In this document: in pieces, positions 6,396 through 51,736 of the stretch | How the letters are laid out: each line of letters opens with the position of its first letter | Numbering within the stretch: position 1 is the first letter of the stretch | Assembly (NCBI GenBank): GCA_963829105.1 | Contig: CAWHHF010000022.1 | Coordinates: forward strand, 586,196-650,195 | From: an uncultured Chloroflexia bacterium | GTDB taxonomy: Bacteria > Chloroflexota > Limnocylindria > Limnocylindrales > CSP1-4 | Direction of reading: 5' to 3' | Length of the DNA: 64,000 nt | Program-made: the position numbers and the translations under genes | Notes under the pieces: generated by a model | Database searches by the model: none | What the model was told of the DNA's origin: nothing | What the model saw: the letters and a program-made list of their open reading frames with translations, nothing else

Positions 6396-6468
6396 GCCCC
6401 CGTAGCTCAGTGGATAGAGCGCAGCCGTCCTAAGGCTGGCGTCGGCGGTTCGAATCCGTCCGGGGGCG
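6396..6468 (+). tRNA. tRNA-Arg (anticodon CCT)
   Basis: gcccccg/cgggggc 7-bp acceptor stem, D-arm tagctcagtggatagagc, anticodon stem cagcc/ggctg with loop gtCCTaa, T-arm ggttcgaatcc. No encoded CCA. Confidence 0.85.
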
Positions 6469-29404: not shown

Positions 29405-30028
29405 ATGCCGGACGGCCGCCGACCAGCCGTAGCCACCGTTCGCCGGAGCGCCCGTCGCCGTGAGGACCTCGTGGACGCGGCCGTCCAGGCCTTCGCGGCC
29501 GGCGGCGTCGCCGGGACATCGGTGGACGCGATCGTCCGCGCCGCGGGCGTCGCCAAGGGCACCTTCTACCTCTACTTCGAGACCCGCGACGACGTCGTCA
29601 CCGCGGTTGCCGAGCGCCTGGTCGACGGCGTCGGGCGGCAGATGAACGCCGCACTCGCCGCGGGGGGACGCACGGCTGCCGACCGCATCCGCGGGATCGC
29701 AGGCGCCATGGCAACGGTCGGCTCGGACCCGTACGAGCGGGAGCTGCTCGAGGCGCTCCACCGGCCAGGGAATGCGGCGGTCCACGACCGGTTGTCCGGA
29801 CGGATCGTCGAGCGTCTCGTGCCGGCGGTGACCACGGTCATCGCCGATGGGATCGCCACGGGTGAGTTCGTCGCCCAGGATCCGCGCCAGGCGGCCGCCT
29901 TCGTCCTCGGGTGCTTCACCTCGCTGCACGACCTGGTGGGCGAGGCCGGGGACCTGCCCGGCATCGTGGACGGGCTCAACGCGTTCGTCCTCCGCGGCCT
30001 CGGCCACCAAGGTGGGAGATCACGGTGA
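29405..30028 (+). CDS. TetR/AcrR family transcriptional regulator
   Basis: ...LVDAAVQAFAAGGVAGTSVDAIVRAAGVAKGTFYLYFETRDDVV is the TetR HTH. The stop overlaps the next gene's GTG (GTGA). Confidence 0.8.
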   Translation: MPDGRRPAVATVRRSARRREDLVDAAVQAFAAGGVAGTSVDAIVRAAGVAKGTFYLYFETRDDVVTAVAERLVDGVGRQMNAALAAGGRTAADRIRGIAGAMATVGSDPYERELLEALHRPGNAAVHDRLSGRIVERLVPAVTTVIADGIATGEFVAQDPRQAAAFVLGCFTSLHDLVGEAGDLPGIVDGLNAFVLRGLGHQGGRSR

Positions 30029-30960
30029 CGTCTCCCGCCGTCGAGACGGCAGACCTCTCGAAGCGGTATGGGGCCGATGTCCTGGCCGTCGACAGCGTCA
30101 GCCTGCGCGTCGGCCGGGGCGAGCTGTACGCCTTCCTGGGCCTCAACGGGGCGGGCAAGTCCACGACGATCCGGATGCTGCTCGGCATGGTCCGGCCGTC
30201 CTCGGGGTCGGCCATGGTGCTCGGCCAGCCAGTCCGGGCCGAGGCTCCCGACCTCTGGGGGCGCGTCGGGCACCTCGTCGAATCGGCCACCGCCTACCCG
30301 GAGCTCACCGTCCTGGAGAACCTCGACGTCGCGCGTCGGTTGCTCGGAGTCCGACACGGTGCCCCGGTGGGCCGCGCGATCGACCGGCTGGGCCTCGGGC
30401 AGTACCGGGATCGGCGGGCAGGCACCCTGTCGCTGGGCAACCTCCAGCGGCTCGCCCTCGCCCGGGCCACGCTCCACGCGCCGGAGCTGCTCGTCCTCGA
30501 CGAGCCGGCCAACGGCCTCGACCCGGCCGGCGTCATCGAGATCCGCGAACTGCTGCGCGAGCTCGTGGCGGCGGGCGGGTCGACCGTGTTCATGTCCAGC
30601 CACATCCTGGCCGAGGTCGATCTGCTCGCGACGCGGGTGGGGATCGTGCACCGCGGACGCCTGATCGAGGAGCTCGACAGCGACGCGCTCCGCCGCCACC
30701 GCGATCCCCGGCTTGAGGTCGCCGCCCCCGATATCGGCGCCGCCGAGGCGGCCCTGGCGGCGGGCGGGTACTCGCCGCGGCGCCTCGTGGCGGCCTCCGG
30801 CATCACCCTCGAGCTCCGGGAGCCGCGCGCCCTCGAGGCGCCCGAGTCCGTGGCCGCCCTGCTGGCCGCCGCAGGAACGCCGCCGAGCCACCTCGCGATC
30901 GCCCGCGAGACCCTCGAGGACCACTTCATCCGCCTGACCGGCCCGGGGTTGGCGGCGTGA
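30025..30960 (+). CDS. ABC transporter ATP-binding protein
   Basis: GLNGAGKST (Walker A), LSLGNLQRLALARA (signature), LLVLDEPANGLD (Walker B), SSHIL (H-loop). Confidence 0.85.
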   Translation: MTSPAVETADLSKRYGADVLAVDSVSLRVGRGELYAFLGLNGAGKSTTIRMLLGMVRPSSGSAMVLGQPVRAEAPDLWGRVGHLVESATAYPELTVLENLDVARRLLGVRHGAPVGRAIDRLGLGQYRDRRAGTLSLGNLQRLALARATLHAPELLVLDEPANGLDPAGVIEIRELLRELVAAGGSTVFMSSHILAEVDLLATRVGIVHRGRLIEELDSDALRRHRDPRLEVAAPDIGAAEAALAAGGYSPRRLVAASGITLELREPRALEAPESVAALLAAAGTPPSHLAIARETLEDHFIRLTGPGLAA

Positions 30961-31742
30961 ACGGGTTGCGCGCCGCGCTCGCCACCGAGTGGCTCAAGGC
31001 CCGCCGGTCCCGCGTCCCGTGGCTGGTCCTCGCCGGCTTCTCGCTGGTGCCGCTCGTCTGCGGCGTGTTCATGGTCATCCTCAAGGACCCGGAGGGCGCC
31101 CGGCGCCTGGGCCTGCTGGGCGCGAAGGCCCAGCTCGCTGCGGGAACCGCCGACTGGCCGACCATGCTCAGCATGCTCGCGCAGGCGGTGGCGGTGGGCG
31201 GGGCGATCCTGTTCGCCTTCCTCACGTCGTGGGTGTTCGGCCGTGAGTTCGCGGACCGCACCCTCCGCGGCCTCCTCGCCAGCCCCACGTCCCGCGGCGC
31301 GATCGTCGTCGCGAAGGCGGTCGTCGTGAGCGCCTGGGGGATCGCCATCACCGCCTGGATCGTCGTGCTCGGGTTCGGGGTCGGCCTGCTCGTGGGGCTA
31401 CCGGGTTGGTCCGACGCGCTGGCCGCCGCGTCGGTGCGAAACATCGTCGCCGCGGCGCTGCTCACGATCGCGCTCCAGCCCGTGACGGGCCTGCTCGCCA
31501 GCGCCGGACGCGGCTACATCGCCGGCCTCGCGTGGGCGGTCCTGACCATCGCCATCGCCCAGGTGCTCGCGGTCCTGGGCCTGGGCGCGACGTTCCCGTG
31601 GGCCGTCCCCGGGCTGATCTCGGGCGCGGCCGGACCCGGTGGGGGGACGCCGCCCGCGAGCGTCGCCCTGGTGCTGCTCACGGGTGCTGCAGGCCTCGTG
31701 CTCACCATCGCGTGGTGGCGCCGCGCGGACCACAGCGGCTAG
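30957..31742 (+). CDS. ABC-2 family transporter permease
   Basis: 261 aa with 6 predicted TM helices. GTG start overlaps the ATPase stop. Confidence 0.75.
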   Translation: MNGLRAALATEWLKARRSRVPWLVLAGFSLVPLVCGVFMVILKDPEGARRLGLLGAKAQLAAGTADWPTMLSMLAQAVAVGGAILFAFLTSWVFGREFADRTLRGLLASPTSRGAIVVAKAVVVSAWGIAITAWIVVLGFGVGLLVGLPGWSDALAAASVRNIVAAALLTIALQPVTGLLASAGRGYIAGLAWAVLTIAIAQVLAVLGLGATFPWAVPGLISGAAGPGGGTPPASVALVLLTGAAGLVLTIAWWRRADHSG

Positions 31743-32040
31743 CGGTCCCGGTCAATCGCCGTGAATTGATGGCCGAGTGTCCGGCGCCAGGCCGAGTCCT
31801 CCACCGCGGGCACCCGTCAAAGCCCCGAAGAACGTCATGTCAGGGACGGTCCTGTAGATTCCGCGGACGGCCGCACATCCTGGATGGCGCGTGAGGTCGC
31901 ACAGGGTCTGCGATGATCGGGTCTGGCAGCCGGAGGGGCAGACAGGTTGGATCGTCCGAATTCCGCGGGTCCGGGTCCGGTCGACTCGTCGATCGCCGGT
32001 CGCCGTCTGCACCTGAACACCTGGCGAAGACGGGGGCCAG

Positions 32041-33655
32041 GGTGAACCTCTTGAGCTCGCGTTTCCACGCTCCCACCGTCGAGCGGCTGCCCGGACGCCG
32101 CATCCGCGTGCTTCGCGAGACCGGTGGGACCCGGACCGAGCTCCGGCTTGATCGCATCGACGTCGTCATGCTGGCGGTGACGGTTGGGCTGTTCGCCTGG
32201 TCGGTCGCCGGCCTGGCCGACCCAGCCTGGCAGTTCGTCGCGGTGATTCCCTCGTACGACCTGGTGTTCGATACGGTGGGCCTGCTCGCGACGCTCGCCG
32301 TTGCCAGCCTCGCCTGGCTTCACTACCGCCAGAACCGCGAGCCGTTCAACCTGTTCGAAGCGTCAGCGTTCCTCGTGCTGGCGATCCCGAACGCGATGCA
32401 TCTCGCGGTCCTGATGACGGATCCCGATGTCGTGGCGGGCATGTCGCTCCTCGACCAGGGCCAGGCCCCGCTGTACGCGTTTCCGGTCGCCGGCATCACC
32501 GCCGCGGTTCTCCTCGTGTTCGGCACGGTTGTCTACCGCGGCGGCCGACGACCGAGGTTCGCGGCGGCGGTGATCGTGGCGCCGGCCGTCGTCGTGCTGG
32601 CCGAGCTGCTGGCCGTGGAGCTCGGGCACAACCTGGCGCCCGTGCTTGCCACCGCCGCGACCGGAGGTGGACCGGCCGGCAGCCGTCCGGTGGCGACCCC
32701 GCTCGCCACGATCCTCGGCGGGGTGGCGGCCGCGATGTTCCTTGTCGCCGCCATCCTCTCGCGCCGGAGCATCCGCCCATCGGGGAACGTCGGCCGGGCG
32801 TACCTGACGGTCGGGCTCACGTTCGCCGCGTTCGCGATGTTCGACGGCATCCTCGACCCGTCGTACGCCGGGCTCGTGAGCGGAGCGGACGTCCTGCGGC
32901 TGTCCTTCTACGTGGTCCTCCTGATCGGCCTCACGGTCGAGACCCATGCGACCCTCCGCGCCCTCGCGGAAGCCAACGAGTCCCTGGCACGGCTGAAGGA
33001 CGCCGAGGTCGAGCGCGCCGCCCTCGAAGAACGCGGCCGGCTGTCGCGCGAGCTCCACGACGGCCTCGCCCAGGAGCTGTGGCTGGCCAGGCTGAAGGCC
33101 GGCCGCCTGGCGACGGTGACGATCGCCGGCTCGGAGGCGGCCGTGCTGGCTGGCGAGCTCGTGGCGGCGATCGATACCGGGCTCGCCGACGCCCGCCAGG
33201 CGGTATCGGCTCTTCGACTCGGCGCTCCCGACGAGCACGTCACCCTGTGTGACCTGATGCGGCGGCTGGTCGACGACTTCGCCGACCGCTTCGGACTGCG
33301 GGCCGAGTACGAGTGCGACCAGCAGGTGCCGCGCCTGGATCCCCGCGGCGAAGCCGAGGTGCTGCGCATCGCCCAGGAGGCGCTCACCAACGTGAGGCGG
33401 CACGCCGACGCAACGTTCATCAGGGTGCGCCTCGAGGCCCACGAGGGCAGCCTCCTCCTGACCGTGCGGGACAACGGCAGGGGGTTCGACAGCACGGCGG
33501 TCGGCGGACAGGGCGTTGGCCTGCCGGGCATGCGCGAGCGGGCCGCCTTGATCCACGGCCGGCTCGGCGTCGTCTCGCGGCCCCAGGACGGGACGTCGGT
33601 CGTCCTTGAGGTGCCGGTGCCCGCGGGCGCCCCGAGCGGGCCGACCGCCCGGTGA
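32041..33655 (+). CDS. sensor histidine kinase (NarL/HisKA_3 type) with multi-TM sensor domain
   Basis: About 6 N-terminal TM helices. ERGRLSRELHDGLAQELW (H-box), LRIAQEALTNVRRHA (N-box), VRDNGRGF, GQGVGLPGMRERAAL (G-boxes). Confidence 0.8.
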
Positions 33656-34317
33656 GCCCGACCGTCGCGCCCGGGAAGGTGCTCGTGATGATCGTGGACG
33701 ACCACCCGCTCGTGCGGGCTGCCGTTCGCCAGGCGATCGCCGCGCCCGACGTGGAGATGGTCGCCGAGGCCGCGACCGCGGAGGACGCCCTCCGGGTGGC
33801 CCCCGAGGTGCGGCCGGACGTGCTCCTCGTGGACATCGACCTGCCCGGGATGAACGGCCTGCTCCTCGCGCGCGAGCTCGCTCCGCGCCTGCCGGGGACC
33901 CGGATCGTGATGCTGACGGCATCGTCCAGCGAGCGCCACCTGGTCGAGGCGATCCGCGCGGGGGCGAGCGGCTACCTGACCAAGGACCTGGCGCCGGAGG
34001 CCCTTCTGCGGGCCGTGCGGGGAGCTCATCGCGGCGAGCTCGCCGTCGGCCGGCGCATGAGCGCCCGCCTCGTTCGCCACCTCGTCGACGCGTCCCGCGC
34101 CGGCGGCAGGAGTGAAGACGACCAGGAGTTGGACACGCTGAGCTCCCGCGAGCGCGAGGTCCTCCGGCTGCTCGCCGACGGGCTCACCGATCGCGAGATC
34201 GCGGAAGCCCTGACCCTCTCGCCGCGGACGGTCGAGACGCACGTGGGCAGCATCCTCCGCAAGCTCGGGGCACGGAACCGCTCGGAGGCGGCGCGCCGCT
34301 ACCGGGCGCTGGCCTGA
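33652..34317 (+). CDS. response regulator, NarL/LuxR family
   Basis: VLVMIVDDHPLVR...LLVDIDLPGMNG (REC) and LSSREREVLRLLADGLTDREIAEALTLSPRTVETHVGSILRKLG (LuxR HTH). GTG overlaps the histidine kinase stop. Confidence 0.9.
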   Translation: MSPTVAPGKVLVMIVDDHPLVRAAVRQAIAAPDVEMVAEAATAEDALRVAPEVRPDVLLVDIDLPGMNGLLLARELAPRLPGTRIVMLTASSSERHLVEAIRAGASGYLTKDLAPEALLRAVRGAHRGELAVGRRMSARLVRHLVDASRAGGRSEDDQELDTLSSREREVLRLLADGLTDREIAEALTLSPRTVETHVGSILRKLGARNRSEAARRYRALA

Positions 34318-34839: not shown

Positions 34840-35091
34840 GACCCCGAGAACCTACCACCTGAGCGTTGCGGTCAGTCTCAGGGGAACCACGGAGTCGGGT
34901 ACCGATCGCGGCCTCCGTAGCCAGCCCCGGCAAGTGGCGGACCCGGCGAGCGGTTGGCCGGTCACCTACACTCTCCTGGCCATCGGGTCGCCACCGGGTT
35001 CCTCGTGGCCGCGACCTGCGTGTTCGACCGAGGTGGAGACGGCAATGGAGTTCCGGCGGCGGATCAGGGGTCAGGCGGGGCAGTTCGCAGC

Positions 35092-36618
35092 ATGAGTCGA
35101 GGGCAGCGGGAGGGGCCGGGGCAGCCACGGCGAGTCTGGCCGGTTGTCCTCCTGACGGCCGTGCTCAGCGTCGTGGCCACGGCCGTGGCGCTCGGCGCCC
35201 TGGCGGTGGCCACGCGCGGCCCCGACCCGACGGGCTGCGACACGGTCGCCTGGAAGGCGATCCCGGACGCGGCCGCGCTGCCGTCGGGCTGGTCGATGGT
35301 GTCCAACCAGGTCTTCGTCGACAGCCTCAGCACATCGCTTGCCGGCCCGACGCCGTCGGGCTCGACCGAGCGGCAGGCCGCGTTCGCGGGGGTCAGCTGC
35401 TTCGGGAGCGATGCCGGCCTCGCCCTTCGCCGGGCGCATGAGGGTGCCCTCGCCGCGGGCGGCGCCGACGTCTCGTTCGCGACGGTCGGGGACGAGTCGT
35501 TCGTCGTGTTCAGCCCCGCGGCCTCCACGACGACGCTGTACTTCCGGCGCGGGCCCCTGGTCGCGGACCTGACCGCCTCCACGTCCGTGGACCGGCCCAC
35601 GCTCGAGGCCGTCGGCCGCGCGGTGGATGGGGCCATGGTCCGATCGCTGGCGGTGAGCGCCGACGCCGCTCCACTGCCCCTGCCATCCTCGACCGGTCCG
35701 GCAGCCTCCGTCGGGCCGGCCGACGCGAGCCCGGCCACGTCCCCGGGGAGTCCGGCTCCGAGCGCGAGCACCGCCGTGGAGAGTCACGACGCGCCCGACC
35801 TCGAGCGACTGCTGCCGTCCCTCGTCGGCACGACCTCCCTGGCGACCCAGAGCGTGCTCGGGACCACCGCCCTCGGGACCGGCGAGGCGAGCCAGGCGCT
35901 CCAGGCATCGCTCAAGAACCTCGGCAAGACGCCCGCGGATCTCCAGATCGCCGGGGCCTACGATCCTACGGGCGCGCTCGACCTGCGCCTCTTCGCGTAC
36001 CGGGTCGCGGGTGTCGACACGACCGAGCTGGCGAGGGCAGTGATCGAGAGCCAGCTGTCGAACACTGCCGCCCAGGCGACGAGCTCGCAGGTGACGATCG
36101 GGGACCACGCGATCACGAAAATCTCCTACGCGCAGGGCTCGCCGGCGTACGTCTACGTGCTGAACGGGGTCGTGTACGTGATCCAGACCGGCGACACGAG
36201 CCTCGTCTCCACCGTGCTCGGCTCTCCTGAAGTAGCTCCGAGGGTCGGCTCGACGAGCCGTGCCGCGGGGCCTGGCGCCGGTCGGGGCGACCGCAGGCAG
36301 CCGCCGGCACCGCGGTCCCGGGCGACGGTACGGAGCGCGCAACCCGTACCGCAGTCCGTAGTAGTCCTGATGGCCGGCAGCGGTCCGGCCAGTACGGTGC
36401 CCTCACAACGGCGCGCGTGCCCATGCGTCCCCTCGTGCGCTGCCGCCGGTCTACTGGGCGAGTGCCACCACGGTGGGAGGATGCGGATGACGGGAGCCAG
36501 GCCTTCCTGCGTACCGAAGGACAAGGCGGCACCGCCCGGCCGCCCCAGCAAGGCCAGGCTCGTGATGCCGGGCTCCGCCACGGCGGGGCCAGCGCTCCGG
36601 CCATCTGCGCGTCACTGA
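35092..36618 (+). CDS. hypothetical membrane-anchored secreted protein (3' end uncertain)
   Basis: MSRGQREGPGQPRRVWPVVLLTAVLSVVATAVALGALAV TM anchor followed by a Ser/Thr/Ala-rich domain. The sequence after about 36250 looks out of frame or low complexity. Confidence 0.45.
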   Translation: MSRGQREGPGQPRRVWPVVLLTAVLSVVATAVALGALAVATRGPDPTGCDTVAWKAIPDAAALPSGWSMVSNQVFVDSLSTSLAGPTPSGSTERQAAFAGVSCFGSDAGLALRRAHEGALAAGGADVSFATVGDESFVVFSPAASTTTLYFRRGPLVADLTASTSVDRPTLEAVGRAVDGAMVRSLAVSADAAPLPLPSSTGPAASVGPADASPATSPGSPAPSASTAVESHDAPDLERLLPSLVGTTSLATQSVLGTTALGTGEASQALQASLKNLGKTPADLQIAGAYDPTGALDLRLFAYRVAGVDTTELARAVIESQLSNTAAQATSSQVTIGDHAITKISYAQGSPAYVYVLNGVVYVIQTGDTSLVSTVLGSPEVAPRVGSTSRAAGPGAGRGDRRQPPAPRSRATVRSAQPVPQSVVVLMAGSGPASTVPSQRRACPCVPSCAAAGLLGECHHGGRMRMTGARPSCVPKDKAAPPGRPSKARLVMPGSATAGPALRPSARH

Positions 36619-36630
36619 CAGAGGGACAGC

Positions 36631-39600
36631 ATGAAGTCGCGTCTCGTTTCGCTCGTCGCCGCCATCCTGGTGCTAGGGTCGTCCGTCGCGCCGGCCTATG
36701 CGGCCAACCCCACCCCGACCCCAGCCCCCACACCTGTGACGAAACCGGCCCAGCCACCCGAGAAGCCGCCGAAGGGCGGCACGATGCCGATGGGTCCGAA
36801 GCAGGTGATGACCGCCGCGCAGATGATGGCCGGAATGGTCACCAACGCGGACCGCCAGGCGGCCGCCAAGCGCGCCGCGGCGAAGGGTCTCGTGCCGGCC
36901 ACGCAGAGCATCAAGACGGGCGCCAAGGCGAACGCGGCAGGCGCCAAGTCGATGGCGAAGGCCGCCCTCACCGGCCCCGACTACTTCGGCGCGTTCCCGA
37001 ACTACGCCAACAGCCCGCTGCCGGCCGGCCCCGTCGTCACCATCTCGGGCGGCGGCGCCACGACCGACGCAACGGCGGTCGCGACGCCCGGCGCCAACGG
37101 CACCATCACCGGCTTGACCCTCACCAGCGGCGGTGCCGGCTACACCACGGCCCCCAGCGTGGCCATCACGGGCCCGGCGGGCTCAACCGGCGCCACCGCC
37201 ACCGCGACGATCAGCACGGACGCGGTCGGCTCGGTTGCCGTCACCGGCAACGGCAGCGGGTTCTCGGCACCCGCCGTGATCTTCGGCGGCCCCGGTACTG
37301 GTGCTGCCGCGGACGCCACGGGCGCCGTCGACGCCGTCACCCTCGGGACGCACGGCGCCGGCTACACCACGCCGCAGGTCGTGTTCACCAACGCCCCGCC
37401 CGCCACGGGCGCCGCGGCCACGGCTTCGGGCGGCGTCGACACCATCACGGTCACGAACCCGGGTACCGCCGCCTACACCGCCCCCGTCGTGACGATCGAT
37501 GCTCCGCCCGCTGGCGGCACGCAGGCCACCGCGACGGCCGCGATCGACGGAACCGGCGCGATCACCGGCTTCGTCGTCACGGGCGGCAGCGGCTACACCG
37601 CCGCACCGAACGTCACGATCGCCGACACGGCCCCGGGCACCGGCACGGGCGCCACCGCGAAGGCCACGATCGACATCAGCGCGCTGGCGCTCAGCGCGAG
37701 CGGCGGCAACTACGCGACGGCCCCGGCCGTCCAGATCAACGACGCTGGCGGCACGCCGACCACCGTCGCTACCGCGACCTCGACGATCAACGTCACGACG
37801 ATCACCATGACCGCGGCGGGCAAAGGCTACACGACGGCCCCGAGCGTCACGGTCGTCGACGTCCCCAATGGCGCCGGCACGGGCGTCGTGGCGGCGGCCA
37901 CGGTCACCGGCGTCGTGAACGCCCTGACCCTCGGTGCCGGCGGTTCCGGCTACGTCAGCGGCGGCATCCGCAAGTTTGTGGACACGCTGCCCGGCCTCGA
38001 CCCCACGAAGCCCAATGACCTCGGCCAGTACATCCCGGTCGCCGTTGCCGACACGACGACGTTCCCCAACGCCGACTATTACGAGATCGCTGTCGTCCAG
38101 TATCGCGAGCAGATGCACGCCGACCTGCCGGCGACGCTCCTCCGCGGGTACGTGCAGATCTCCACGTCCGTCGTGCCCGGCGCCCACGTCCAGCTGTTCA
38201 ACGAGAACCTCGACGGCACCAAGACCGCGATCCTCCGCAACGGCCAGCCCGTGTACGCCGTCGACAAGCCGTCCTACCTTGGCCCGATCATCGTCGCCCA
38301 GAAGGACCACGCGACCCGGATCAAGTTCGACAACTTCCTGCCGACCGGGGTCGCGGGCGACCTGTTCATCCCGGTCGACACGACCGACATGGGCGCCGGC
38401 ATGGGCCCGGTCGATACGAGCGGCAACCCGTGCGATCCGGCGACGGGCGGCACCTGCGCGAGCTACACCGAGAACCGGGCGACGCTCCACCTGCACGGTG
38501 GGTTCACCCCGTGGATCAGCGACGGCACGCCGGACCAGTGGACGACGCCCGCCAACGAGACCACGAAGTACCCGACGGGCGTGAGCGTCTCCTACGTGCC
38601 GGACATGTGGTTCGACGCTAACGGCAACCCGGTCCCCGCCGGCACGGCGGGCGCCTCGAATGACCCGGGCGACGGCTCGCTGACGTTCTACTACACGAAC
38701 CAGCAGAGCGCCCGGCTGATGTTCTACCACGACCATGCGTACGGGATCACTCGGCTCAACGTGTACGCGGGCGAGGCCGCCGGCTACATCCTCCAGGACC
38801 CGGTCCTCGACTCCAACTGGACGTGCACGATCCTCGGCTCCTGCGTCGCCAACACGAACAGCCTGGTCAGCAAGAAGGTCATCCCGGCGACCCAGATCCC
38901 GCTGATCATCCAGGACAAGACCTTCGTCCCCGACACGGCGCAGCTCGCCAAGGAGGATCCCACCTGGGACAGCGGCGCGTACGGCGGGCTCGGCAACCTC
39001 TGGTTCCCGCACGTCTACATGCCCAACCAGAACCCGGCCGACCCAGGTGGCGCCAACGCCATGGGTCGCTGGGACTACGGGCCCTGGTTCTGGCCGCCGT
39101 ACACGGGCCTTGCGAATGGCCCGGTTGCGAACCCCAACGCCGGCCCGAGCGCACCCTGGGAGAACTCTCAGAACCCCGGCACCCCCAACCCGTCGCTCGT
39201 CCCCGAATCGTTCATGGACACGCCGGTCGTCAACGGCACGGCCTACCCGGTCCTGAACGTCGACCCGACGTCCTACCGGTTCTCGATCCTCAACGCCGGC
39301 AACGACCGGAACCTCAACCTGTCGCTGTGGCAGTCCGCGGCGAGCTTCGGGACGAACGGCACCAACGGCGTCCCGAACTCCGCGATGTGGACCGGCAAGA
39401 CCCTGAACAACGCGGACTTCGGCGAGGTCCCGATGGTCCCCGCCGTCGCGGGGAACGCCAGCACGGCCGGCTACACCAAGCCCGACCAGCTCGACGGCCG
39501 CGCGGGCGGCGTCCCTGATGCACGCGCAGCCGGCCCGAGCATGATCCAGATCGCGTCCGAGGGCGGTGTCCTGCCGGCCCCGGTCGTGCTGACGAACGGT

Positions 39601-42600
39601 CCCGTCGGCTACAACTACAACCGGCGCGACATCGTCGTCCTGAACGTCTCCAACAAGACCCTGTTCATGGGCCCGGCCGAGCGCGCCGACGTCATCGTCG
39701 ACTTCTCCCAGTTCGCCGGCAAGACCCTCCTGCTCTACAACGACGCCCCGGCACCGGTGCCGGCGTTCGACACCCGGTATGACTACTACACGGGCGACCC
39801 CGACCAGACCACGACCGGCGGCGCCCCCACCACGCTCCCGGGCTACGGCCCGAACACCCGGACGATCATGCAGATCGTGGTCTCCGGTGGAGCGCCCGCA
39901 CCGACGTTCAACCTCGCCCTCCTGCAGAGCGCGTGGAAGGGCCTCGCCGGCGCCTACGCGATGTCCCAGGACAAGCCGATCGTTCCCGAGCTCGGCTACA
40001 ACTCGGCCTTCCCCGGGATTGCCGCGAACAACGCCTACTCCCACATCACCGATCATTCGCTGTGGATCGGCAACCCGGTCAACGGCATCCAGCTCCTGAC
40101 GGGCGGCACCGGCTACACGAGCGCGCCGGCTGTGGGCTTCGTTGGAGGCGGCGGCACCGGCGCCGCGGCGACCGCCACGGTGACCGGGGGTGTTGTGACC
40201 AGCGTCGTCGTCGATTCCAAGGGCACCGGCTACACCAGCGCCCCGGTGATCACCTTCACCGGGGGTGGCGGCAGCGGCGCGAGCGCCGTCCCCATCGGCT
40301 GGATGATGCATGCAGCCGAAGGCGATCCAGGAGCTGTTCGAGACGCAGTACGGCCGGATGAACGCCACGCTCGGCTTCGAGCTCCCGTTCACCAGCGTCA
40401 CCACCCAGACGACCATCCCGATGGGCTACGCCGAGCCCACCACGGAGATCATCTCGCCGTCCGACCTCGGCACCCCGATCGCGACGCTGGGCGACGGCAC
40501 CCAGATCTGGAAGATCACCCACAACGGCGTCGACACCCACACGATCCACTTCCACCTGTTCAACGTCCAGGTGATCAACCGGGTCGGCTGGGACGGCGCC
40601 ATCCGGCCGCCCGACGCCAACGAGCTGGGCTGGAAGGAATCGGTCCGGATGAACCCGCTGGAGGACGCGATCGTCGCCCTCCGGCCGACCCTCCCCGTCC
40701 TCCCGTTCAAGATCCCGGACAGCCAGCGGCCGATCGACGTGACCCGGCCGACCACGGCCATCGATCAACACCTTCGACCCGACCACCGGTAACGCCGTCA
40801 CCGTCATGAACGAGGTGACCGACTTCGGGTGGGAGTACGTGTGGCACTGCCACCTGCTCGGCCACGAAGAGAACGACATGATGCGGCCGATCAAGTACAC
40901 CGTGTCGCCGTTTGTCCCGACGGCCCTACGGCGGCCAACCAGAATTCCCGGCGCCCTGCCAACACCCGCCCTATCAGCAGGTCAAGCTGGACTGGACGCA
41001 CGTCTCCGCGACCTACCCGAAGACGACGAACTTCGTCGTTCGGCGGGCCACGGACGCGGGGTTCACGCAGAACGTCACGATGTTCGGCCTGCAGCCGACG
41101 CCGCAGACGGCGCCGACGATCACGCTGACCCGACCTTCACCGACAAGACCGTGGCCAACGGCACCCAGTACTGGTACGAGGTTCGTGCCGAGAACTCCGT
41201 CGGCTACTCGGCGTGGTCGGCGAGCGCCACCGTCACGACGGCTGCGGGTCTCAACGTGACCGCCTCAAGCGCGACGATCACCTACGGGCGCCTGTCCCGA
41301 CGATCACGCCCAGCTACGCCCGGCCATCCCGCGCCGGGCGCCGTCGCTGATTTCCACGGCGCCGGTCTGCACCACGACCTACACGCAGGGTCGCCGGTCG
41401 GGCACCTACCCGACCACCTGCACGGGCCCCGCGTTCCGATCCGGCACTACCTCTTCATCACCTACTTCCAGGGACTGATCACGGTCACCCCGGCGCCGCT
41501 GACCATCACCGCCCCGAGCGGCACGTATCCCTTTGGCGGCCCGGTGCCGGCTCTCGCCCCGACCTATACCGGGTTCGTGAACGGTGACACGCCGGCTTCG
41601 CTGACGGGCACCGTCACCTGCACCCCGACCTTCACGACCACCACCGCAGCCGGGACCTACCTCACCACCTGCAGCGGCGCGACGAGCACGAACTACACCA
41701 TCACCTACGTCCCCGGCTCGGTCACGGTGACGCCAGTGGCCTTGGTCATCACCGCCTCGAGCGTCATCTCCACCGATGGTCTACGGCGCAGCCCGGTCCC
41801 GTTGATCATCCCGAGCTACGCGGGCCTCGTCCCGGTGACACTGCGCCGGCGACGCCACCAACCTGCTCGACGACGGCCATCATCACCTCGCCGTCGGGCA
41901 CGTACGCTGTCGAGCTGCTCGGGAGCGGTCGACCCCAACTACACCATCACCTACGTCCCCGGCGTGGTCCATGTGACCCAGGCTGCCCTCGCCATCCCGC
42001 GCCAAACGGCACGATGGTCTACGGCGGCCCGGCGATCTCACGCCGACGACCTACGTCGGCTTCGTCAACGGTGACACGGCCGCAAGCCTGACGAGCCGCG
42101 CCAGCGTGCACGCCGGTCATCACCTCGACGACACCGGTTGGCTCGTATATCACCGGTTGCTCCGGCGCCGCCAGCCCGAACTACGTGTTCGTGTACATGC
42201 CGTGGGCCTCGTCACGGTGACCGCGGCCGCCGCGACCGTCACCGCGTCCAGCGCGACGATGGTCTACGGTGGGGCCGTTCCGGCGATCACCCCGACCTAT
42301 GGCGGTCTGCTGAACGGCACGACGGCTCCCGCCACGCTGCCGATCTGCTCGACCACGGCCACCAGCACCTCGCCGGTCGGCACGTACCCGTCGAGTTGCA
42401 CCGGGGCCGCTGATCCCAACTACACCTTCACGTACGTGGCCGGCACCGTCACGGTCACCAAGGCCGCTGCGACGACGGTCGTGACCAGCAACGTCAACCC
42501 CTCCGTCCACGGGCAGTCCGTGACGTTCACCGCCACGGTGACCCGGTCCAGCGCCGGTACGGGTGCCGTGCCCAGCGGCACGGTCCAGTTCAAGGTCGAC

Positions 42601-43059
42601 GGCGTCAACCTCGGCGGTGCCAGGACTCTCAACGCGGCCGGCGTCGCCACCATCGCAACGACCACGCTGACGACCGCGACGCACTCCGTCGTGGCCACCT
42701 ACTCGGGGGACGTCCGCTACCTGGGCGGCCCGAGCGCGGCCCTCAGCCAGCGGGTCAACGCGGCCCGGACGACCACGACCCTCACCCTCACAACGCCGGT
42801 CAGCCGGCGGACGACGATCCGGTACACGGCGCGCGTCCGAGCCGTGGCACCGGGCGCCGGCACGCCGACGGGTACTGTCCGGTTCTACCGCGGCACGACC
42901 CTCATCGGCTCGGCGACGCTCTCGGGCGGCGTGGCAGTTCTCAACTACCGGAACACCAACCTCGCGACCGGCACGTACTCGATGCACGCCACCTACGTCG
43001 CCTCGACCAACTTCCTTACCAGCACCAGCCCGAACGTGAGCCAGCGAATCACCCCGTAA
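36631..43059 (+). CDS. giant secreted multicopper oxidase with N-terminal GGxGYTxAP repeats and C-terminal FN3/MBG/Ig-like repeats, interrupted by 6 or more frameshifts after 40290
   Basis: Signal peptide MKSRLVSLVAAILVLGSSVAPAYA. About 8 tandem about 42-aa repeats (TLTSGGAGYTTAPSVAITG...). MCO copper motifs HLHGG (38490), HDHAYG (38735), HTIHFHLF (40540), WHCHLLGHEENDMM (40850). Then FN3 (QYWYEVRAENSVGYSAWS), MBG-like repeats (TYxGFVNGDTxASLTG...TCSGAxxxNYTITYVPGxVTVT) and Ig-like repeats (41200-43059). Pieces lie in ORFs 36631..40809, 40310..40792, 40806..42074, 40912..41259 and 42106..43059. Confidence 0.7.
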
Positions 43060-43343
43060 CCACGCAGCGCGGGCCAACGGTCCGCGCCCGACTCCTGCGG
43101 TCCCGGGCGAGGGAGCGATCCCTCACCCGGGACTCGCCATGTCATGGCCCTGGGACCTGTGCCAGTCGGCCTCGCCGGCCATGGCCGCGGCCGCCGTGCG
43201 AAGCGTGCCAGCCGGCGTGGGCAGCCGCCCGGCGTCGGAGCTCGGCCCCTTAATCTCCACCTCATGTGCGGTGGGGTCTCATGTGCGGTGCGGCATTCCT
43301 GCCGCGACTAGGGCTGCGTCCCACCGCATGGAGGTCCCGTGAC

Positions 43344-44591
43344 ATGAGGCTCATTCGACCCGCAGGTCGCCCCGCCACCGCCGCTCCGGCCGGTGGGCCA
43401 TCTCCGCAGCCTCCCACGCGGGGGCGCCGGAGGGGGTCCCGACCCCTGGCGAGCGGTCTCGCGGGCGCGCTCCTCGCATCCCTCGTGCTCGCGGGCGTCA
43501 CCGCCGCCGCCGGCAACACCACGTTGTACGTCTCCGCTACCGGCAGTGACTCGAACGCATGTACGTCCTCGGCTCCCTGCCGGACGATCGGCCACGCCGT
43601 CAGCGTCGCCACCGCCGGTTCGACGGTTCGCGTCAGGCGCGGCACGTACCACGAGCAGGTGTTCCTGCAGAAGCGCCTCGTCCTCGCAGGCGACGGCGCC
43701 GTCATCGACGCGACCGGCCTGATGGCCGGCGTCCAGCCGCTGTCCGGACAGGGCATCGTGGGCTACGCGATCCTCGTCGCCGGTCCCGCCGCGAGCGGGT
43801 CCGAGATCCGCGGTTTCACCGTCGAGAACGCCACGGGCGAGGGGATCCTGGCCGCGATGGCCTCGCACCTGATCATCGCCGACAACCGTGTCCAGTCCAA
43901 CGACAAGGGCTATGGAACCAAGCTGACGTTCGAGTGCCAGGCCCAGGGCCAGGTCCCCGGCGACTGCGGCGAGGGGATTCACCTGCTGAGCGTCACCCAT
44001 TCCCGGGTGACCGGCAACATGGTCACGGACAACGTCGGCGGCATCCTGATCACCGACGAGATGGGACCCGCGTCGAACAACCTGATCGAGGACAACGTGG
44101 CGCGCAACAACAAGCTCGACTGCGGGATCACGCTGCCGTCGCACAACGCCAGCGCCATGGCCGATCCGACCAAGGGCGGCGTGTACGACAACCTCGTCAT
44201 CGACAACGTCTCCCAGGGCAACGGCGGGGCCGGCGTCGGCATGTTCGCCCCGTTCCCCGGGACCGCCTCCTACGACAACCGGGTCGTCGACAACGTGCTG
44301 CTGAACAACGGTGAAGCCGGAGTGGGGATCCATGCCCATGCGCCGGGCCAGAACGTCTCGGGCAACGTGATCACCGGCAACTGGATCTCCGGGAACGGGA
44401 TCGACCCCGATGCCGGCACCGGGCACCCGGTCGGGATCGCGCTGTTCAGCGCCGCCGTCCCGGTCGCCGTCACGGTGTCGAACAACCGGATCGCCCACGA
44501 GTACTACGGCATCTTCCGGGCGGGGACGATCCACGCGACCGGTCTCGCGAGCAACGTGTTCGCGTCGTCGGTGACGGTGCACATCCACTGA
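43344..44591 (+). CDS. secreted right-handed parallel beta-helix repeat protein (pectin lyase fold, NosD-like)
   Basis: Signal peptide-like LAGALLASLVLAGVTAAAG. Repeated GN/DN-x-I/V turns (VTGNMVTDNVGGILITD..IEDNVARNN..VIDNVSQGNGGAGVG..VVDNVLLNNGEAGVGIH..VITGNWISGNGI). Confidence 0.7.
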   Translation: MRLIRPAGRPATAAPAGGPSPQPPTRGRRRGSRPLASGLAGALLASLVLAGVTAAAGNTTLYVSATGSDSNACTSSAPCRTIGHAVSVATAGSTVRVRRGTYHEQVFLQKRLVLAGDGAVIDATGLMAGVQPLSGQGIVGYAILVAGPAASGSEIRGFTVENATGEGILAAMASHLIIADNRVQSNDKGYGTKLTFECQAQGQVPGDCGEGIHLLSVTHSRVTGNMVTDNVGGILITDEMGPASNNLIEDNVARNNKLDCGITLPSHNASAMADPTKGGVYDNLVIDNVSQGNGGAGVGMFAPFPGTASYDNRVVDNVLLNNGEAGVGIHAHAPGQNVSGNVITGNWISGNGIDPDAGTGHPVGIALFSAAVPVAVTVSNNRIAHEYYGIFRAGTIHATGLASNVFASSVTVHIH

Positions 44592-47511: not shown

Positions 47512-49506
47512 CTAGTCGTCCCCTCCGTTACCGCGCGGGTGGCACTTCGCGCACGTCGTCATCACCCCGCCGTGATGCGAGCGCATGTTCGAGTGACATC
47601 TGGCGCAGGAGTAGCTGGTGTACCCGGACGGGTGGCATCTCGAGCAGACCCCGCCGGCGCCGCCATGGCTCTGGGGGAAGGTGTGCGGCCCGCCGTACTT
47701 CGCGGGCAGCCAGGCCCTGGTCGTGTGGCAGGACGCGCAGCTGTTGCTGAAGCCGCTGCCGTGCGAGGAAGGCTTGGTGTGGCAGGCCGAGCACGTGGTC
47801 GGCGTTCCCTTGTACCGGCCGCCCTTGTGACAGCGCAGGCACGCGACGCTCTTGTGGGCCCCGGTCAGCGCGAACTTCGCCTTGGCGTGGTTGAACGACG
47901 CGGGCAGCCAGGCGCGGGTCGTGTGACAGGATCCACAGCTGCTGCCGTAGGCGCTGCCGTGCGAGGCGGGCTTGTTGTGACAGGCGGAGCACGCGGTGGG
48001 CGTTCCCGTGGTCTGTCCCCCTCCGTGGCACTTCTGGCAGGTCACGCTGCGGTGGGCCCCGGTCAGGGGGAACCTGGCCTTGTTGTGGTTGAACGACGCG
48101 GGAAGCCAGGCGCGGGTCGTGTGACAGGACGCACAGCTGCCGGCGAAGGCACTGCCGTGCGAGGCGGGCTTGTTGTGACAGGCCGAGCACGCGGTCGGTG
48201 TTCCCGAATACTGGTTCCCGGTGTGGCAGCGCTGGCAGGTCACGCTGCCGTGGGCCCCGGTCAGCTGGAACTTCGCCTTGTCATGGTTGAACGACGCAGG
48301 CAGCCAGGCCGTCGTCTTGTGGCACGACGCACAGTCCTTGCCCAGGGATCCGTTGTGCTGGTCATCACCGGCGTGACATCCGATGCACGTCGTGGGCGTG
48401 CCGACATACCGGCCGTTGGCATGGCAGGCGACGCAGGCGGGCTTGGCGTGCGCGTCGGTCAGGGCGAACCGCGTCTTCGTGTGGTCGAAGGTGACGTCCT
48501 TCCAGCCGGTCGCCGCGTGGCAGTCGGCACAGTCGCCCGGGAACTGGTCGGCGTGCGGGTTGACGGCCGCGTGGCAGCTGCGGCAGGTCACGCCGATCCC
48601 CGTCCAGTGACGGTCGACGTGGCAGGACTCGCACGCCGTCCCCACGTGCTGCCCGACGAGGGCGAAGCGCGTCCGACCGTGGTCGATGGTGGCGTCTGCC
48701 CAGGTCTTGGTGCTGTGGCACTCCGCGCAGTTGGTCCCCAGACGCCCCTCGTGGATGTCCTTTGCCGCATGGCAGGAGATGCAATCGGTCGACGTGGCCT
48801 GCAGCGCCGCCACCGTGGTCGCCCCGAGATGACAGCCTGCGCACGGCGTCCCCTCGTGGCCCCCGGTCAGGGGGTAGGTCGCGTGATCGAATGACTTCCC
48901 GTACCTGTCCACGCCGTCATGGCAGTTCAGGCAGGCCGTGCCGAAGGTCTCCTGGTGGGTCGCCATGAACGGCTGGTCGAGCGCCTGGTGGCAGGCGACG
49001 CAGGTGGGCGCTGAGAACGTCTGTGGCGAGCCGGGGTGGCAGTCGCGGCAGCCGACGCCGCCGGGCTGGCCGTTGAGCGGGTGCGCGGCGAGGGAGAACC
49101 CGGTCTGCTCGTGGGGGAAGATGCGCGGATCGGCCAGCGTCAGCGACGCGGTCGCTCCCCGGTGGTCGGTGTGGCAGTCGCGGCAGTTGGCCGCCGACGA
49201 CTTGAGCAGGCGCCCGTGCAGGCCACCCGCCGTGGAGATCTCCTGCTGGACCTGGGTGTGACAGGCGAGGCACCGGTCGGCCATGCGGGCATCCGACCAG
49301 GCGGCCACGTGACAGGCGTCGCACTTGCCCGCGAGGTCGGCATGGGAGTTCACGCCACCGACCGGCCCGCCCTGGGCCACGCCGCTCAGCTGGCCCGGGC
49401 TGAAGATCCCGTTCCCGGTGACGGCCGTGGCGCCCAGGATGGCGAGGCCCAGCAGGACGGCGGCAGCCAGCGCCGAGAAGGTGAGACAGCCAAGGGGACG
49501 GCGCAT
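47512..49506 (-). CDS. multiheme c-type cytochrome, 27 CxxCH motifs, secreted
   Basis: 665 aa from MRRPLGCLTFSALAAAVLLGLAILGATAVTG (signal peptide). There are 27 CxxCH motifs (CDACH, CLACH, CRDCH ... CARCH, CAKCH). Three near-identical about 57-aa modules TCQ(R/K)CH...GTPTACSACHNKPASHGSA...SC(A/G)SCHTTRAWLPASFNH.KA.F.LTGAH. Confidence 0.85.
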   Translation of the reverse strand: MRRPLGCLTFSALAAAVLLGLAILGATAVTGNGIFSPGQLSGVAQGGPVGGVNSHADLAGKCDACHVAAWSDARMADRCLACHTQVQQEISTAGGLHGRLLKSSAANCRDCHTDHRGATASLTLADPRIFPHEQTGFSLAAHPLNGQPGGVGCRDCHPGSPQTFSAPTCVACHQALDQPFMATHQETFGTACLNCHDGVDRYGKSFDHATYPLTGGHEGTPCAGCHLGATTVAALQATSTDCISCHAAKDIHEGRLGTNCAECHSTKTWADATIDHGRTRFALVGQHVGTACESCHVDRHWTGIGVTCRSCHAAVNPHADQFPGDCADCHAATGWKDVTFDHTKTRFALTDAHAKPACVACHANGRYVGTPTTCIGCHAGDDQHNGSLGKDCASCHKTTAWLPASFNHDKAKFQLTGAHGSVTCQRCHTGNQYSGTPTACSACHNKPASHGSAFAGSCASCHTTRAWLPASFNHNKARFPLTGAHRSVTCQKCHGGGQTTGTPTACSACHNKPASHGSAYGSSCGSCHTTRAWLPASFNHAKAKFALTGAHKSVACLRCHKGGRYKGTPTTCSACHTKPSSHGSGFSNSCASCHTTRAWLPAKYGGPHTFPQSHGGAGGVCSRCHPSGYTSYSCARCHSNMRSHHGGVMTTCAKCHPRGNGGDD

Positions 49507-49520
49507 CGGCTTCGCTCGCC

Positions 49521-50198
49521 TCAGCGGAGCAGCGTCGCGTAGTAGATGGCACCCGCGATGTGCGCGATCGCCAACACGAACAGCGCCATGCCCAGCGGGA
49601 TGTGGATGGCGTGCCAGGTCGCCAGCGCCCGCCGCGCCCAGCGCAGCGCCGCCATCTGCCGTTCGAGCTCGCGCAACCGGCGCGCAGGCGCCGGATCCGG
49701 GCGCCCGGCCACGGCAAGAGCGATCGCCGTGCCCGCCAGCGCGGGATGCGCCACCTCCTGCCTGGCGGCTTCCAGCTGCAGCTGCAGGACCTGCGCCTCG
49801 ATCACGATCCCGTCCGCCGTCCGGGGCGTGGCGGTGTAGATATACCGCCCGATGAACCCGCTGATGACGACCACCACCACCATGACGGTCAGCGCCCCCG
49901 CCAGTCCGTTGAAGCTCCAGGCCGAATGGAGGACGACGAGGTAGGAGCCGACGATCCCGGTGAAGATGTGGAACTGCAGCCACGCCCGCATGCTGCCCCT
50001 GGGCCGGTGCATGGCCCGCTTGCGCAGCGAGTAGAGCGTCTCGGTCATCAGCATCAGGACGAACCCGACGATCCCGAGGGAGTGGCCCAGGAGGCCGCTC
50101 GCCGCGGGGACGCCGACGGACTTCACGAAGCCTGCATAGAGGCCCGTGATGACGACCACCACCACCAGGGCCAGCACCAGCTCGCTATACCGTGCCAA
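49521..50198 (-). CDS. integral membrane protein, 5 TM with conserved His (putative b-type heme membrane subunit)
   Basis: 225 aa. TM helices contain H (LLGHSLGIVGF, WLQFHIFTGIVGSYLVVLHSAW, WHAIHIPLGMALFVLAIAHIAG). The ORF sits between the oxidoreductase and the cytochrome and overlaps the oxidoreductase by 14 nt. Confidence 0.6.
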   Translation of the reverse strand: MARYSELVLALVVVVVITGLYAGFVKSVGVPAASGLLGHSLGIVGFVLMLMTETLYSLRKRAMHRPRGSMRAWLQFHIFTGIVGSYLVVLHSAWSFNGLAGALTVMVVVVVISGFIGRYIYTATPRTADGIVIEAQVLQLQLEAARQEVAHPALAGTAIALAVAGRPDPAPARRLRELERQMAALRWARRALATWHAIHIPLGMALFVLAIAHIAGAIYYATLLR

Positions 50199-51504: not shown

Positions 51505-51505
51505 C

Positions 51506-51736
51506 TCAACCGCCACCGAGAAGCGACGAGTCGCCGAACACGGGGGACACCTCGAACCGGAGCGTGCCACGCGGACAGCGGGCCACGCATTCGCCGCAGG
51601 TCAGGCAGTAGCGATCGGCGACCGGCTGGCGCAGGCGCACCTTGGCCCGGATGTCGATGCCCAGCGGGCAGTTGTAGGTGCAGATGCCGCACTCGACGCA
51701 GCGGTTCGGTTCTGCGACGAGCACCCCCGAGACCAT
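51506..51736 (-). CDS. 2x[4Fe-4S] ferredoxin
   Basis: 76 aa. CVECGICTYNCP and CLTCGECVARCP. The stop abuts the oxidoreductase start. Confidence 0.8.
   Translation of the reverse strand: MVSGVLVAEPNRCVECGICTYNCPLGIDIRAKVRLRQPVADRYCLTCGECVARCPRGTLRFEVSPVFGDSSLLGGG

Follow-up and report, generated by a model that had tools for sequence, protein, structure and literature searches.

Gene organization and domain architecture

The window analysed here, the whole stretch of 64,000 nt at positions 586,196 to 650,195 of contig CAWHHF010000022.1 from an uncultured Chloroflexia bacterium (Limnocylindrales), has a G+C content of ~72%; all coordinates below are window-based. At 36631-43059 (+) it carries a gene of ~6.4 kb that is predicted to encode a giant, exported multicopper oxidase of the CotA type. 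In the assembly, the gene is distributed over three open reading frames (ORFs), at 36631-40809, 40806-42074 and 42106-43059 (all +). These are considered pieces of one gene because the third-position GC (GC3) signal runs through them unbroken, because Viterbi decoding on codon usage, with frame changes allowed, gives one continuous product, and because the intact homologue P0002 (1,867 aa) aligns in order across the successive frames. The GC3 frame plot shows a strong coding signal along the whole gene despite the changes of phase. The reconstructed product has 2,139 aa, a Sec-type signal peptide without a twin-arginine motif and a complete set of type-1, type-2 and type-3 (T1, T2 and T3) copper ligands, which bears out the original prediction, made from the DNA letters, of a secreted multicopper oxidase of about 2,100 aa. 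A Shine-Dalgarno-like GAGGGA is located 7 nt upstream of the ATG. The features of the gene, each with its basis where there is one to name, are as follows:

36631-36702 (+): start codon and Sec-type signal peptide, MKSRLVSLVAAILVLGSSVAPAYA followed by A (translation)
36976-37023 (+): N-terminal motif PDYFGxxPNYANSPLP, ahead of the repeats (family alignments)
37033-37965 (+): eight tandem all-beta repeat copies of ~39 aa (anchor positions, family consensus, matches to phrog_701 and phrog_460)
37963-40062 (+): cupredoxin domains 1 and 2 with family-specific insertions (match to CotA 1gsk, family profile, Foldseek)
40063-40308 (+): two more repeat copies, between oxidase domains 2 and 3 (anchors; phrog_701, E 1e-19)
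40309-42200 (+): patch of 10-15 reading-frame changes (GC3 plot, Viterbi, frameshift-aware alignment)
40310-40925 (+): cupredoxin domain 3, read in two further frames (motifs, frame-aware alignment)
40926-41240 (+): fibronectin type III (FN3)-like domain with 3-4 frame changes inside (alignment to the FN3 domain of P0002; profile match to 3mpc)
41241-42465 (+): five MBG (YGX-type) domains, of which copies 1, 3 and 4 are frame-broken and copies 2 and 5 intact
42466-43059 (+): two Big_3_5 immunoglobulin (Ig)-like domains and the stop codon

The columns of the PDYFGxxPNYANSPLP motif were nearly invariant in family alignment A1 and invariant in alignment A2. In the frame-corrected C-terminus, Pfam returned MBG_2 in four significant stretches (E 2.2e-43; five copies were counted by eye) and Big_3_5 in two stretches (E 6.6e-28). 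The FN3-like region gave no direct match to Pfam fn3; it aligns to the FN3 domain of the homologues, and the family profile matches the Fn3-like Protein Data Bank (PDB) chain 3mpc (E 7e-8). FN3, MBG-type and Ig-like modules had all been proposed from the sequence and are present. The further proposal that the enzyme is clearly a cell-surface protein holds for secretion, which the signal peptide and the variable extracellular Ig-like and FN3 arrays of the family support, and not for surface attachment, as no anchoring domain was recognised after the Big_3_5 domains or elsewhere in the oxidase protein.

Copper sites and the CotA-type core

The four copper motifs begin where they had been placed before, at 38488, 38728, 40538 and 40845. 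HLH (38488-38496) and HDH (38728-38736) in domains 1-2 are the T2/T3 ligands, while HTIHFH (40538-40555) and HCHLLGHEENDM (40845-40880) in domain 3 make up the T1 site and the remaining ligands of the trinuclear cluster; domains 1-2 also hold an acid residue, in SDG, that is equivalent to D116 of CotA. A phmmer search of the PDB with the single sequence identified CotA (1gsk) as the best solved relative (E 1.5e-25), and a profile of 40 family members matched CotA at E 6.4e-59 in six aligned stretches spanning CotA residues 25-509, followed by the bilirubin oxidase of B. pumilus, a fungal bilirubin oxidase and phenoxazinone synthase. In this profile alignment, the family motif lHLHGGxTPWISDG falls on CotA HLHGGVTPDDSDG (H105, H107, D116), FYHDHA on WYHDHA (H153, H155), tHaiHfH on THPIHLH (H419, H422, H424) and WHCHlLgHEEndMMRP on WHCHILEHEDYDMMRP (H491, C492, H493, H497, E498, M502). 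From established knowledge of CotA, we take these residues to be the T1, T2 and T3 ligands and the proton relay. The copper-ligand columns are invariant or nearly so across the 40 family members. A failure of the motifs to align with T1/T2/T3 sites had been named in advance as grounds for abandoning the oxidase assignment; all of them align to CotA ligands.

The oxidase core, from IRKFVD to MMRP, comprises ~973 aa including the two internal repeats, in agreement with the ~975 aa given originally. An AlphaFold2 (AF2) model of the frame-corrected core had a mean predicted local distance difference test score (pLDDT) of 65 and a predicted template modelling score (pTM) of 0.67. With this model, Foldseek again placed CotA at the top (E ~4e-21; TM-score normalised to CotA, TMt, 0.67-0.70; ~1,000 columns including gaps), with bilirubin oxidase and phenoxazinone synthase below it. 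Pfam was weak on the core and recognised only Cu-oxidase_2 (E 1.4e-9 after frame correction). The whole protein contains a single set of the four copper motifs, and the alignment of the core runs only once through the three CotA domains; the protein is therefore not of the six-domain MnxG type, and the six cupredoxin domains by which MnxG is defined were not found. The analogy in size to MnxG, MofA and MoxA, on which the original prediction leaned, thus falls away, since the core is one three-domain CotA-type unit with insertions. Sequence comparison and the structural model together indicate that the core is a single three-domain oxidase of the CotA/bilirubin-oxidase type that has been enlarged by insertions. 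In the assembly, the oxidase lacks the uninterrupted frame looked for in a CotA-type gene (10-15 frame changes).

Among characterised proteins, Bacillus subtilis CotA (1gsk) and the Bacillus pumilus bilirubin oxidase (7z5p) have the same three cupredoxin domains as the window oxidase. All twelve copper-ligand positions of CotA and the Asp/Glu residues of the second sphere align with the window family, and of the two ends of the core, IRKFVDTLPGL matches the start of CotA while WHCHxLxHExxDMMRP is nearly the same as its C-terminal counterpart. However, CotA has only 513 aa against ~970 aa in the window core, which carries large family-specific insertions in domains 1 and 2, and the identity between the two is only ~16% in the structural alignment. 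Unlike CotA, the window oxidase has a signal peptide, is not a spore-coat protein, and adds 8 + 2 phage-type repeats, the FN3-like domain, five MBG domains and two Big_3_5 domains.

A widespread family of giant CotA-like oxidases

More than 1,657 protein clusters matched the N-terminal 1,220 aa of the oxidase (E <= 1e-5), more than 5,400 clusters matched a relative of it (E <= 1e-20), and 497 query-matching stretches were confirmed in a one-genome-per-species set (best identity 62%), which puts the family in at least 497 species genomes. The hosts belong to Chloroflexota, Actinomycetota (Micromonospora), Bacillota (Neobacillus, Ectobacillus, Desulfosporosinus, Clostridia) and Acidobacteriota, and also include Anaeromyxobacter, Phycisphaerae, Armatimonadota and Ca. 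Methanoperedens. Examples are P0002 and the proteins of Neobacillus cucumis, Anaeromyxobacter oryzae, Micromonospora and Ca. Methanoperedens. In databases, members are labelled 'FtsP/CotA-like multicopper oxidase with cupredoxin domain', 'Laccase [uncultured archaeon]' or 'fibronectin type III domain-containing protein'.

Within this uncharacterised family, the core is 59-75% identical among members, and the window oxidase shares their motifs and carries their repeat at insertion points that they also use. The number of repeats and the C-terminal domains vary, a common neighborhood is lacking, and the window copy is frame-broken. Between 0 and 12 repeat copies precede the core and between 0 and 19 stand between domains 2 and 3, and the tails are composed variously of FN3, MBG, Big_3_5, Big_7 and other Ig-like modules. 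P0002, the closest homologue, is 66% identical and has the same tail of MBG and Big_3_5 domains. On these sequence comparisons, the gene is taken to be one more example of the giant secreted CotA-like oxidases, a family that is widespread and already annotated in databases. In other members (P0001-P0221), the repeat was also observed at two sites within the catalytic core, behind DTTxMGAGMGP in a loop of domain 1 and behind NAGNDRxLNL in a loop of domain 2, with example units beginning MDNTYMGAGMGP... and AGNDRTINLGLY..., which brings the insertion sites in the family to four overall.

Very large secreted CotA-like oxidases are common in genomes from wetlands, soils and sediments, habitats whose carbon and metal turnover is shaped in part by extracellular oxidases of phenols and metals. 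Several hosts are culturable (Neobacillus, Micromonospora, Anaeromyxobacter oryzae), which makes the family testable.

The GGxGYTxAPxV repeat

The N-terminal repeats are anchored at aa 168, 208, 242, 280, 319, 358, 397 and 438, with the eighth copy truncated and running into the oxidase core, and the two internal copies at aa 1159 and 1198. The count of about eight plus two copies thus stands as originally given; the spacing is 34-41 aa, and the period is therefore ~39 aa and not 42. The family consensus of the repeat is GGTGAxATAxxxxGxVxxxTxTNxGSGYTSAPxVxxTGGG, and ten tandem units of ~39 aa in the oxidase match the repeat profile. The N-terminal repeats match phrog_701 (E 5.9e-21) and phrog_460 (E 7.5e-21). 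In the AF2 core model, the internal copies are all-beta, with ~3 strands per unit and a pLDDT of 73-92; the model of the N-terminal array had a pLDDT of 43, too low for fold comparison.

A profile of 40 positions, built from 94 units, found the repeat in 17,180 representative proteins (E <= 0.001), and 133 of the 142 top matches had no oxidase motifs. Eight scanned proteins of this non-oxidase group matched PHROG virion-structural, baseplate-wedge, tail-fibre and head-closure families (E down to 1e-157) and had no Pfam domain above threshold. PHROGs 701, 460, 19630, 708 and 5342 (virion structural, baseplate-wedge and tail-fibre) have the ~39-aa GGxGYTSAPxV repeat in common with the window oxidase; it is the repeat alone that they have in common, and no oxidase domain occurs there. 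The original prediction of a novel repeat architecture is not sustained, as the architecture is standard in a very large family and the repeat is common in phage virion and giant bacterial proteins. The search by profile and structure that had been suggested for the repeat gave wide PHROG and protein matches, yet neither a Pfam model nor a solved structure: the Pfam scan was negative even in family members with 12-19 copies, and no solved structure was detectable by sequence search. A module that occurs in more than 17,000 representative proteins and in phage virions is thus still without a Pfam model or a solved structure.

The repeat probably serves as an accessory spacer or adhesion module, because its number and position vary freely around a conserved core and because it occurs at virion surfaces. 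It was also observed in representative proteins (P0222-P0363) of up to 7,277 aa and with up to 53 matched stretches. Probable phage proteins of ~1,450-1,730 aa (P0225, P0232, P0233) carry it together with common N- and C-terminal regions, and no Pfam domain was found in the giant and probable-phage repeat proteins that were scanned.

Integrity of the reading frame

All frame changes fall within 40309-42200, ~10 by the GC3 frame plot and ~15 by codon-model Viterbi decoding. The Viterbi sites are approximately 40309, 40763, 40926, 40967, 41131, 41295, 41321, 41437, 41844, 41878, 41927, 42003, 42038, 42115 and 42200, and the GC3 phase changes lie at ~40300, 40750, 40928, 41138, 41330, 41408, 41828, ~41950, 42125 and 42190. 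The frameshift-aware alignment to homologues requires +1 at 40310, +1 at 40764, a net +1 at ~40930-40981 and -1 at 41133. The earlier observation that the gene is broken after 40290 was correct in its location, while its count of at least five ORFs was too low.

These changes are very probably local consensus errors of the assembly, a conclusion drawn from several features of the sequence. They occupy only 1.9 kb of the 6.4 kb of the gene (P from about 5e-6 to 1e-8). Of the 60 domain-3 columns with a conservation of at least 95% across the family, 59 are kept after frame correction, compared with 185 of 190 in the unbroken part; by a rough estimate, the far more numerous substitutions that would go along with ~15 neutral indels would have altered 5-10 of these 60 positions, and one is seen to be altered. 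The identity of domain 3 to homologues relative to that of domains 1-2 gives a ratio of 1.04, mid-range for the family, and identity to P0002 over 40310-40762 is 82%. The GC3 value is 0.96 in 40307-40792.

A second frameshift patch on the plus strand, at ~16.1-21 kb and possibly extending to ~23800, breaks five unrelated consecutive genes, which encode an extracytoplasmic function (ECF) sigma factor, a Kelch-like repeat protein, a beta-lactamase-like serine hydrolase, an ATP-binding cassette (ABC) ATPase and an ABC-2 permease. In the ABC ATPase, Walker A lies in one frame and LSKGLRQR...LFLDEPTAG in another, and LDPVAAREV, which follows on directly, is back in the Walker A frame. In a codon-model scan, the stretch at 16-24 kb held 18 frame changes and that at 40-44 kb held 10; elsewhere the scan gave 0-2 per 2 kb, and the genes there had full-length domain matches. 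Among homologous loci, the oxidase gene is split over frames in 3 of 14 from long-read (Microflora Danica) metagenome-assembled genomes (MAGs) and in 1 of 62 others (p = 0.018), and the 120 best matches to the C-terminal part include ~28 fragments of <=631 aa that lie on contigs of >40 kb. The ECF sigma factor gene of the second patch also has an in-frame stop ('LRAMR*AVDLSPDE').

A genuine pseudogene, in which a first frameshift at ~40309 removed domain 3 and the part downstream then decayed by indels, is unlikely. The 10-15 frame changes are truly present in the assembly, the patch is without the long homopolymers that are typical of simple long-read errors, and broken copies also occur in the isolate Micromonospora sp. 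NBS 11-29 and, as an in-frame stop, in Acidobacteria bacterium AB60. Decay, however, is hard to reconcile with the lack of excess amino-acid change in the corrected frames, with the GC3 that is still high beyond the first break, with the second patch 20 kb away, or with the last 860 nt of the gene, which are without a break (P 0.006-0.04 under downstream decay). The frameshifts noted originally are real in the assembly, and the dead gene that genuine frameshifts would have meant is not what the evidence favors. The oxidase gene is probably intact in the organism, and since it most likely lies intact within a patch of poor consensus, the "broken giant oxidase" should be scored neither as a pseudogene nor as a unique architecture.

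With regard to the error mode, homopolymer errors are not supported as the explanation of the patch, there being no runs >=5. An assembly confused by DNA repeats fits the 16-21 kb patch, with its Kelch-like repeats of 89-97% identity at 148-nt spacings, but fits poorly at 40309-42200, where the MBG copies are only 68-82% identical. The 148-nt spacing of the Kelch-like DNA repeats is not a multiple of 3. As for the two broken copies elsewhere, both in isolate genomes, the homologue of Acidobacteria bacterium AB60 (L066, 9545-15415) has its in-frame stop at ~11225 and that of the Micromonospora isolate (L073) changes frame near 11500-12100; each may be a genuine lesion or an error.

Proposed function of the oxidase

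The mechanism proposed here follows from the conserved ligands and the established chemistry of CotA and other multicopper oxidases. The protein would be exported by its Sec signal peptide and would oxidise an extracellular one-electron donor at the T1 copper, bound by the His of HTIHFH, the Cys and the second downstream His of HCHxxxH, and the axial Met. Candidate donors are reduced metal ions (Mn(II), Fe(II), Cu(I)) and organic compounds of the phenolic, humic or hydroquinone kind. Enzymes of the CotA type are promiscuous, and the CotA of Bacillus pumilus WH4 has been reported to oxidise Mn(II). From the T1 copper, electrons would cross the His-Cys-His bridge and reach the trinuclear T2/T3 cluster, made up of the histidines of HLH, HDH, HxH and HCH, where four-electron reduction of O2 to water would be aided by the conserved Asp (SDG) and Glu (HE). 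The 39-aa repeats and the array of FN3-like, MBG and Big_3_5 domains would act as non-catalytic spacer or adhesion modules, keeping the enzyme either at a distance from the cell envelope or an insoluble substrate, or attached to it.

Taken as a whole, the account of one exported CotA-type oxidase of ~2,140 aa with accessory modules, broken only by consensus errors, is in our judgment likely, and several points weigh against it. On the one hand, the substrate, any anchoring and the role of the repeat are what we infer; the core model is only moderately confident (pLDDT 65), with the surroundings of the copper sites poorly modelled; and no characterised family member was found in the literature on the repeat motif or on the family in Methanoperedens or with FN3. 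On the other hand, the frame changes were judged from the assembled sequence alone. At ~1 per 125 nt they are far denser than the single breaks in the other long-read MAG copies, their positions are approximate, and the patch holds no homopolymer run >=5. The protein collection contained no near-identical independent copy, the best being 59-66% identical.

Genomic neighborhood and alternative roles

The genes flanking the oxidase, and the cytochrome gene beyond them, are as follows:

29911-31742 (+): ABC ATPase and permease
31913-34317 (+): HisKA_3 kinase and LuxR-type regulator
34954-~36270 (+): membrane-anchored protein without a Pfam match
43266-44591 (+): beta-helix/NosD-like protein (Beta_helix, DUF1565 and NosD domains)
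47512-49983 (-): 27-heme polymer of c7-type domains (Cytochrome_C7)
50185-51570 (-): pyridine-nucleotide disulfide oxidoreductase

The ORF of the membrane-anchored protein, 34954-36618, probably ends near 36270 in reality, because its last ~120 codons lose the GC3 signal and are Arg-rich. The cytochrome has 823 aa and 27 CxxCH motifs, matches Cytochrome_C7 in 7 stretches (E 2.5e-35) and consists of triheme c7-type units, presumably resembling the c7-polymer cytochromes of Geobacter. Two more CxxCH motifs, at 46924 and 46966 (-), were seen in a putative ORF that overlaps an equally putative ORF of the plus strand.

The comparison of neighborhoods covered 80 homologous loci, each with flanks of up to 10 kb on either side. 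Clustering of the flanking ORFs gave no partner gene common to more than 14 loci, and the recurring clusters were generic two-component and ABC genes and one cluster confined to Bacillus relatives. The closest homologue lies in an unrelated context, with MoxR/VWA/XdhC genes on one side and a phosphoribosyltransferase on the other. The only conserved neighborhood among the 80 loci was that of a Kiruna Chloroflexi MAG (L006; 4480-6035 and 13027-14064), in which the kinase is 48%, the regulator 68% and the protein without a Pfam match 49% identical. Because this locus keeps kinase and regulator beside the oxidase gene, the HisKA_3/LuxR-type two-component system possibly regulates the oxidase; the synteny, like the best sequence matches, also suggests a Chloroflexota-like source.

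The original prediction had hinted at a Mn(II) oxidase comparable to MofA, MnxG or MoxA, with a part in metal redox cycling alongside the multiheme cytochromes encoded nearby. The enzyme is indeed extracellular and large, a 27-heme cytochrome is encoded in the window, CotA-type enzymes such as that of B. pumilus WH4 can oxidise Mn(II), and the family has members in the Fe-/Mn-cycling taxa Methanoperedens, Anaeromyxobacter and Geomesophilobacter. However, 4.4 kb and several other genes separate the oxidase from the cytochrome gene, which is on the opposite strand; a homologue of the cytochrome was found at none of the 80 loci, and only 2 of the 80 had any ORF with >=3 CxxCH motifs within 10 kb. 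With no neighbor conserved across the family and the closest homologue in an unrelated setting, the proposed link to the cytochromes is not supported. The core, moreover, is one three-domain unit as opposed to the six domains of MnxG, no adjacent mofB-like or mofC-like partner genes (gene set according to PMC5566968) were found, and the sequence does not discriminate Mn(II) from other substrates. A dedicated role in Mn(II) oxidation and metal cycling is therefore without specific support, and we regard it as quite unlikely.

By architecture, and compared by description only, the most relevant characterised analogues are OmpB/OmpC of Geobacter (GSU1394 and GSU2657), outer-surface multicopper proteins that contain an FN3 domain and are required for the reduction of Fe(III) oxide (PMC5566968; PMC3495685). 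Like Leptothrix MofA, compared in the same way, they are large and secreted with multicopper motifs, and FN3 is found in OmpB as well. Genes for mofB (peptidyl-prolyl isomerase), mofC (cytochrome c) or a SCO1-type chaperone cluster with MofA/OmpB-type genes (PMC5566968), whereas these partners are absent beside the window oxidase, whose neighbors are the two-component system, the membrane protein without a Pfam match and the beta-helix protein. That the window oxidase is a counterpart of OmpB/OmpC, serving extracellular electron transfer to insoluble Fe(III)/Mn(IV) oxides and not acting as a classical oxidase, is very unlikely: the domain logic of OmpB, a secreted multicopper protein with an FN3 domain, recurs here and the family has a Geobacteraceae member (P0083, Geomesophilobacter, 47% identity), but the 120 best relatives of P0083 include no G. 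sulfurreducens protein, OmpB has been likened to MofA (PMC5566968) where the window family is CotA-like, and the mechanism of OmpB itself is unknown.

A broader extension of the CotA-type reading would make the whole family a major, unrecognised class of extracellular oxidases for Mn/Fe or humic/hydroquinone redox reactions at oxic-anoxic interfaces, with the repeat binding minerals or polymers and not acting as a passive spacer. We consider this extension doubtful; if true, the class would span hundreds of lineages from soil, peat and sediment, with strict anaerobes and Ca. Methanoperedens among them.

The protein encoded directly downstream of the oxidase (43266-44591), a right-handed beta-helix with a membrane or signal segment predicted at its N-terminus, had no homologue at the 80 related loci. 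An Rfam scan found no RNA element at the oxidase locus, and its sole match in the window was a single tRNA gene at 6396-6468 (+).

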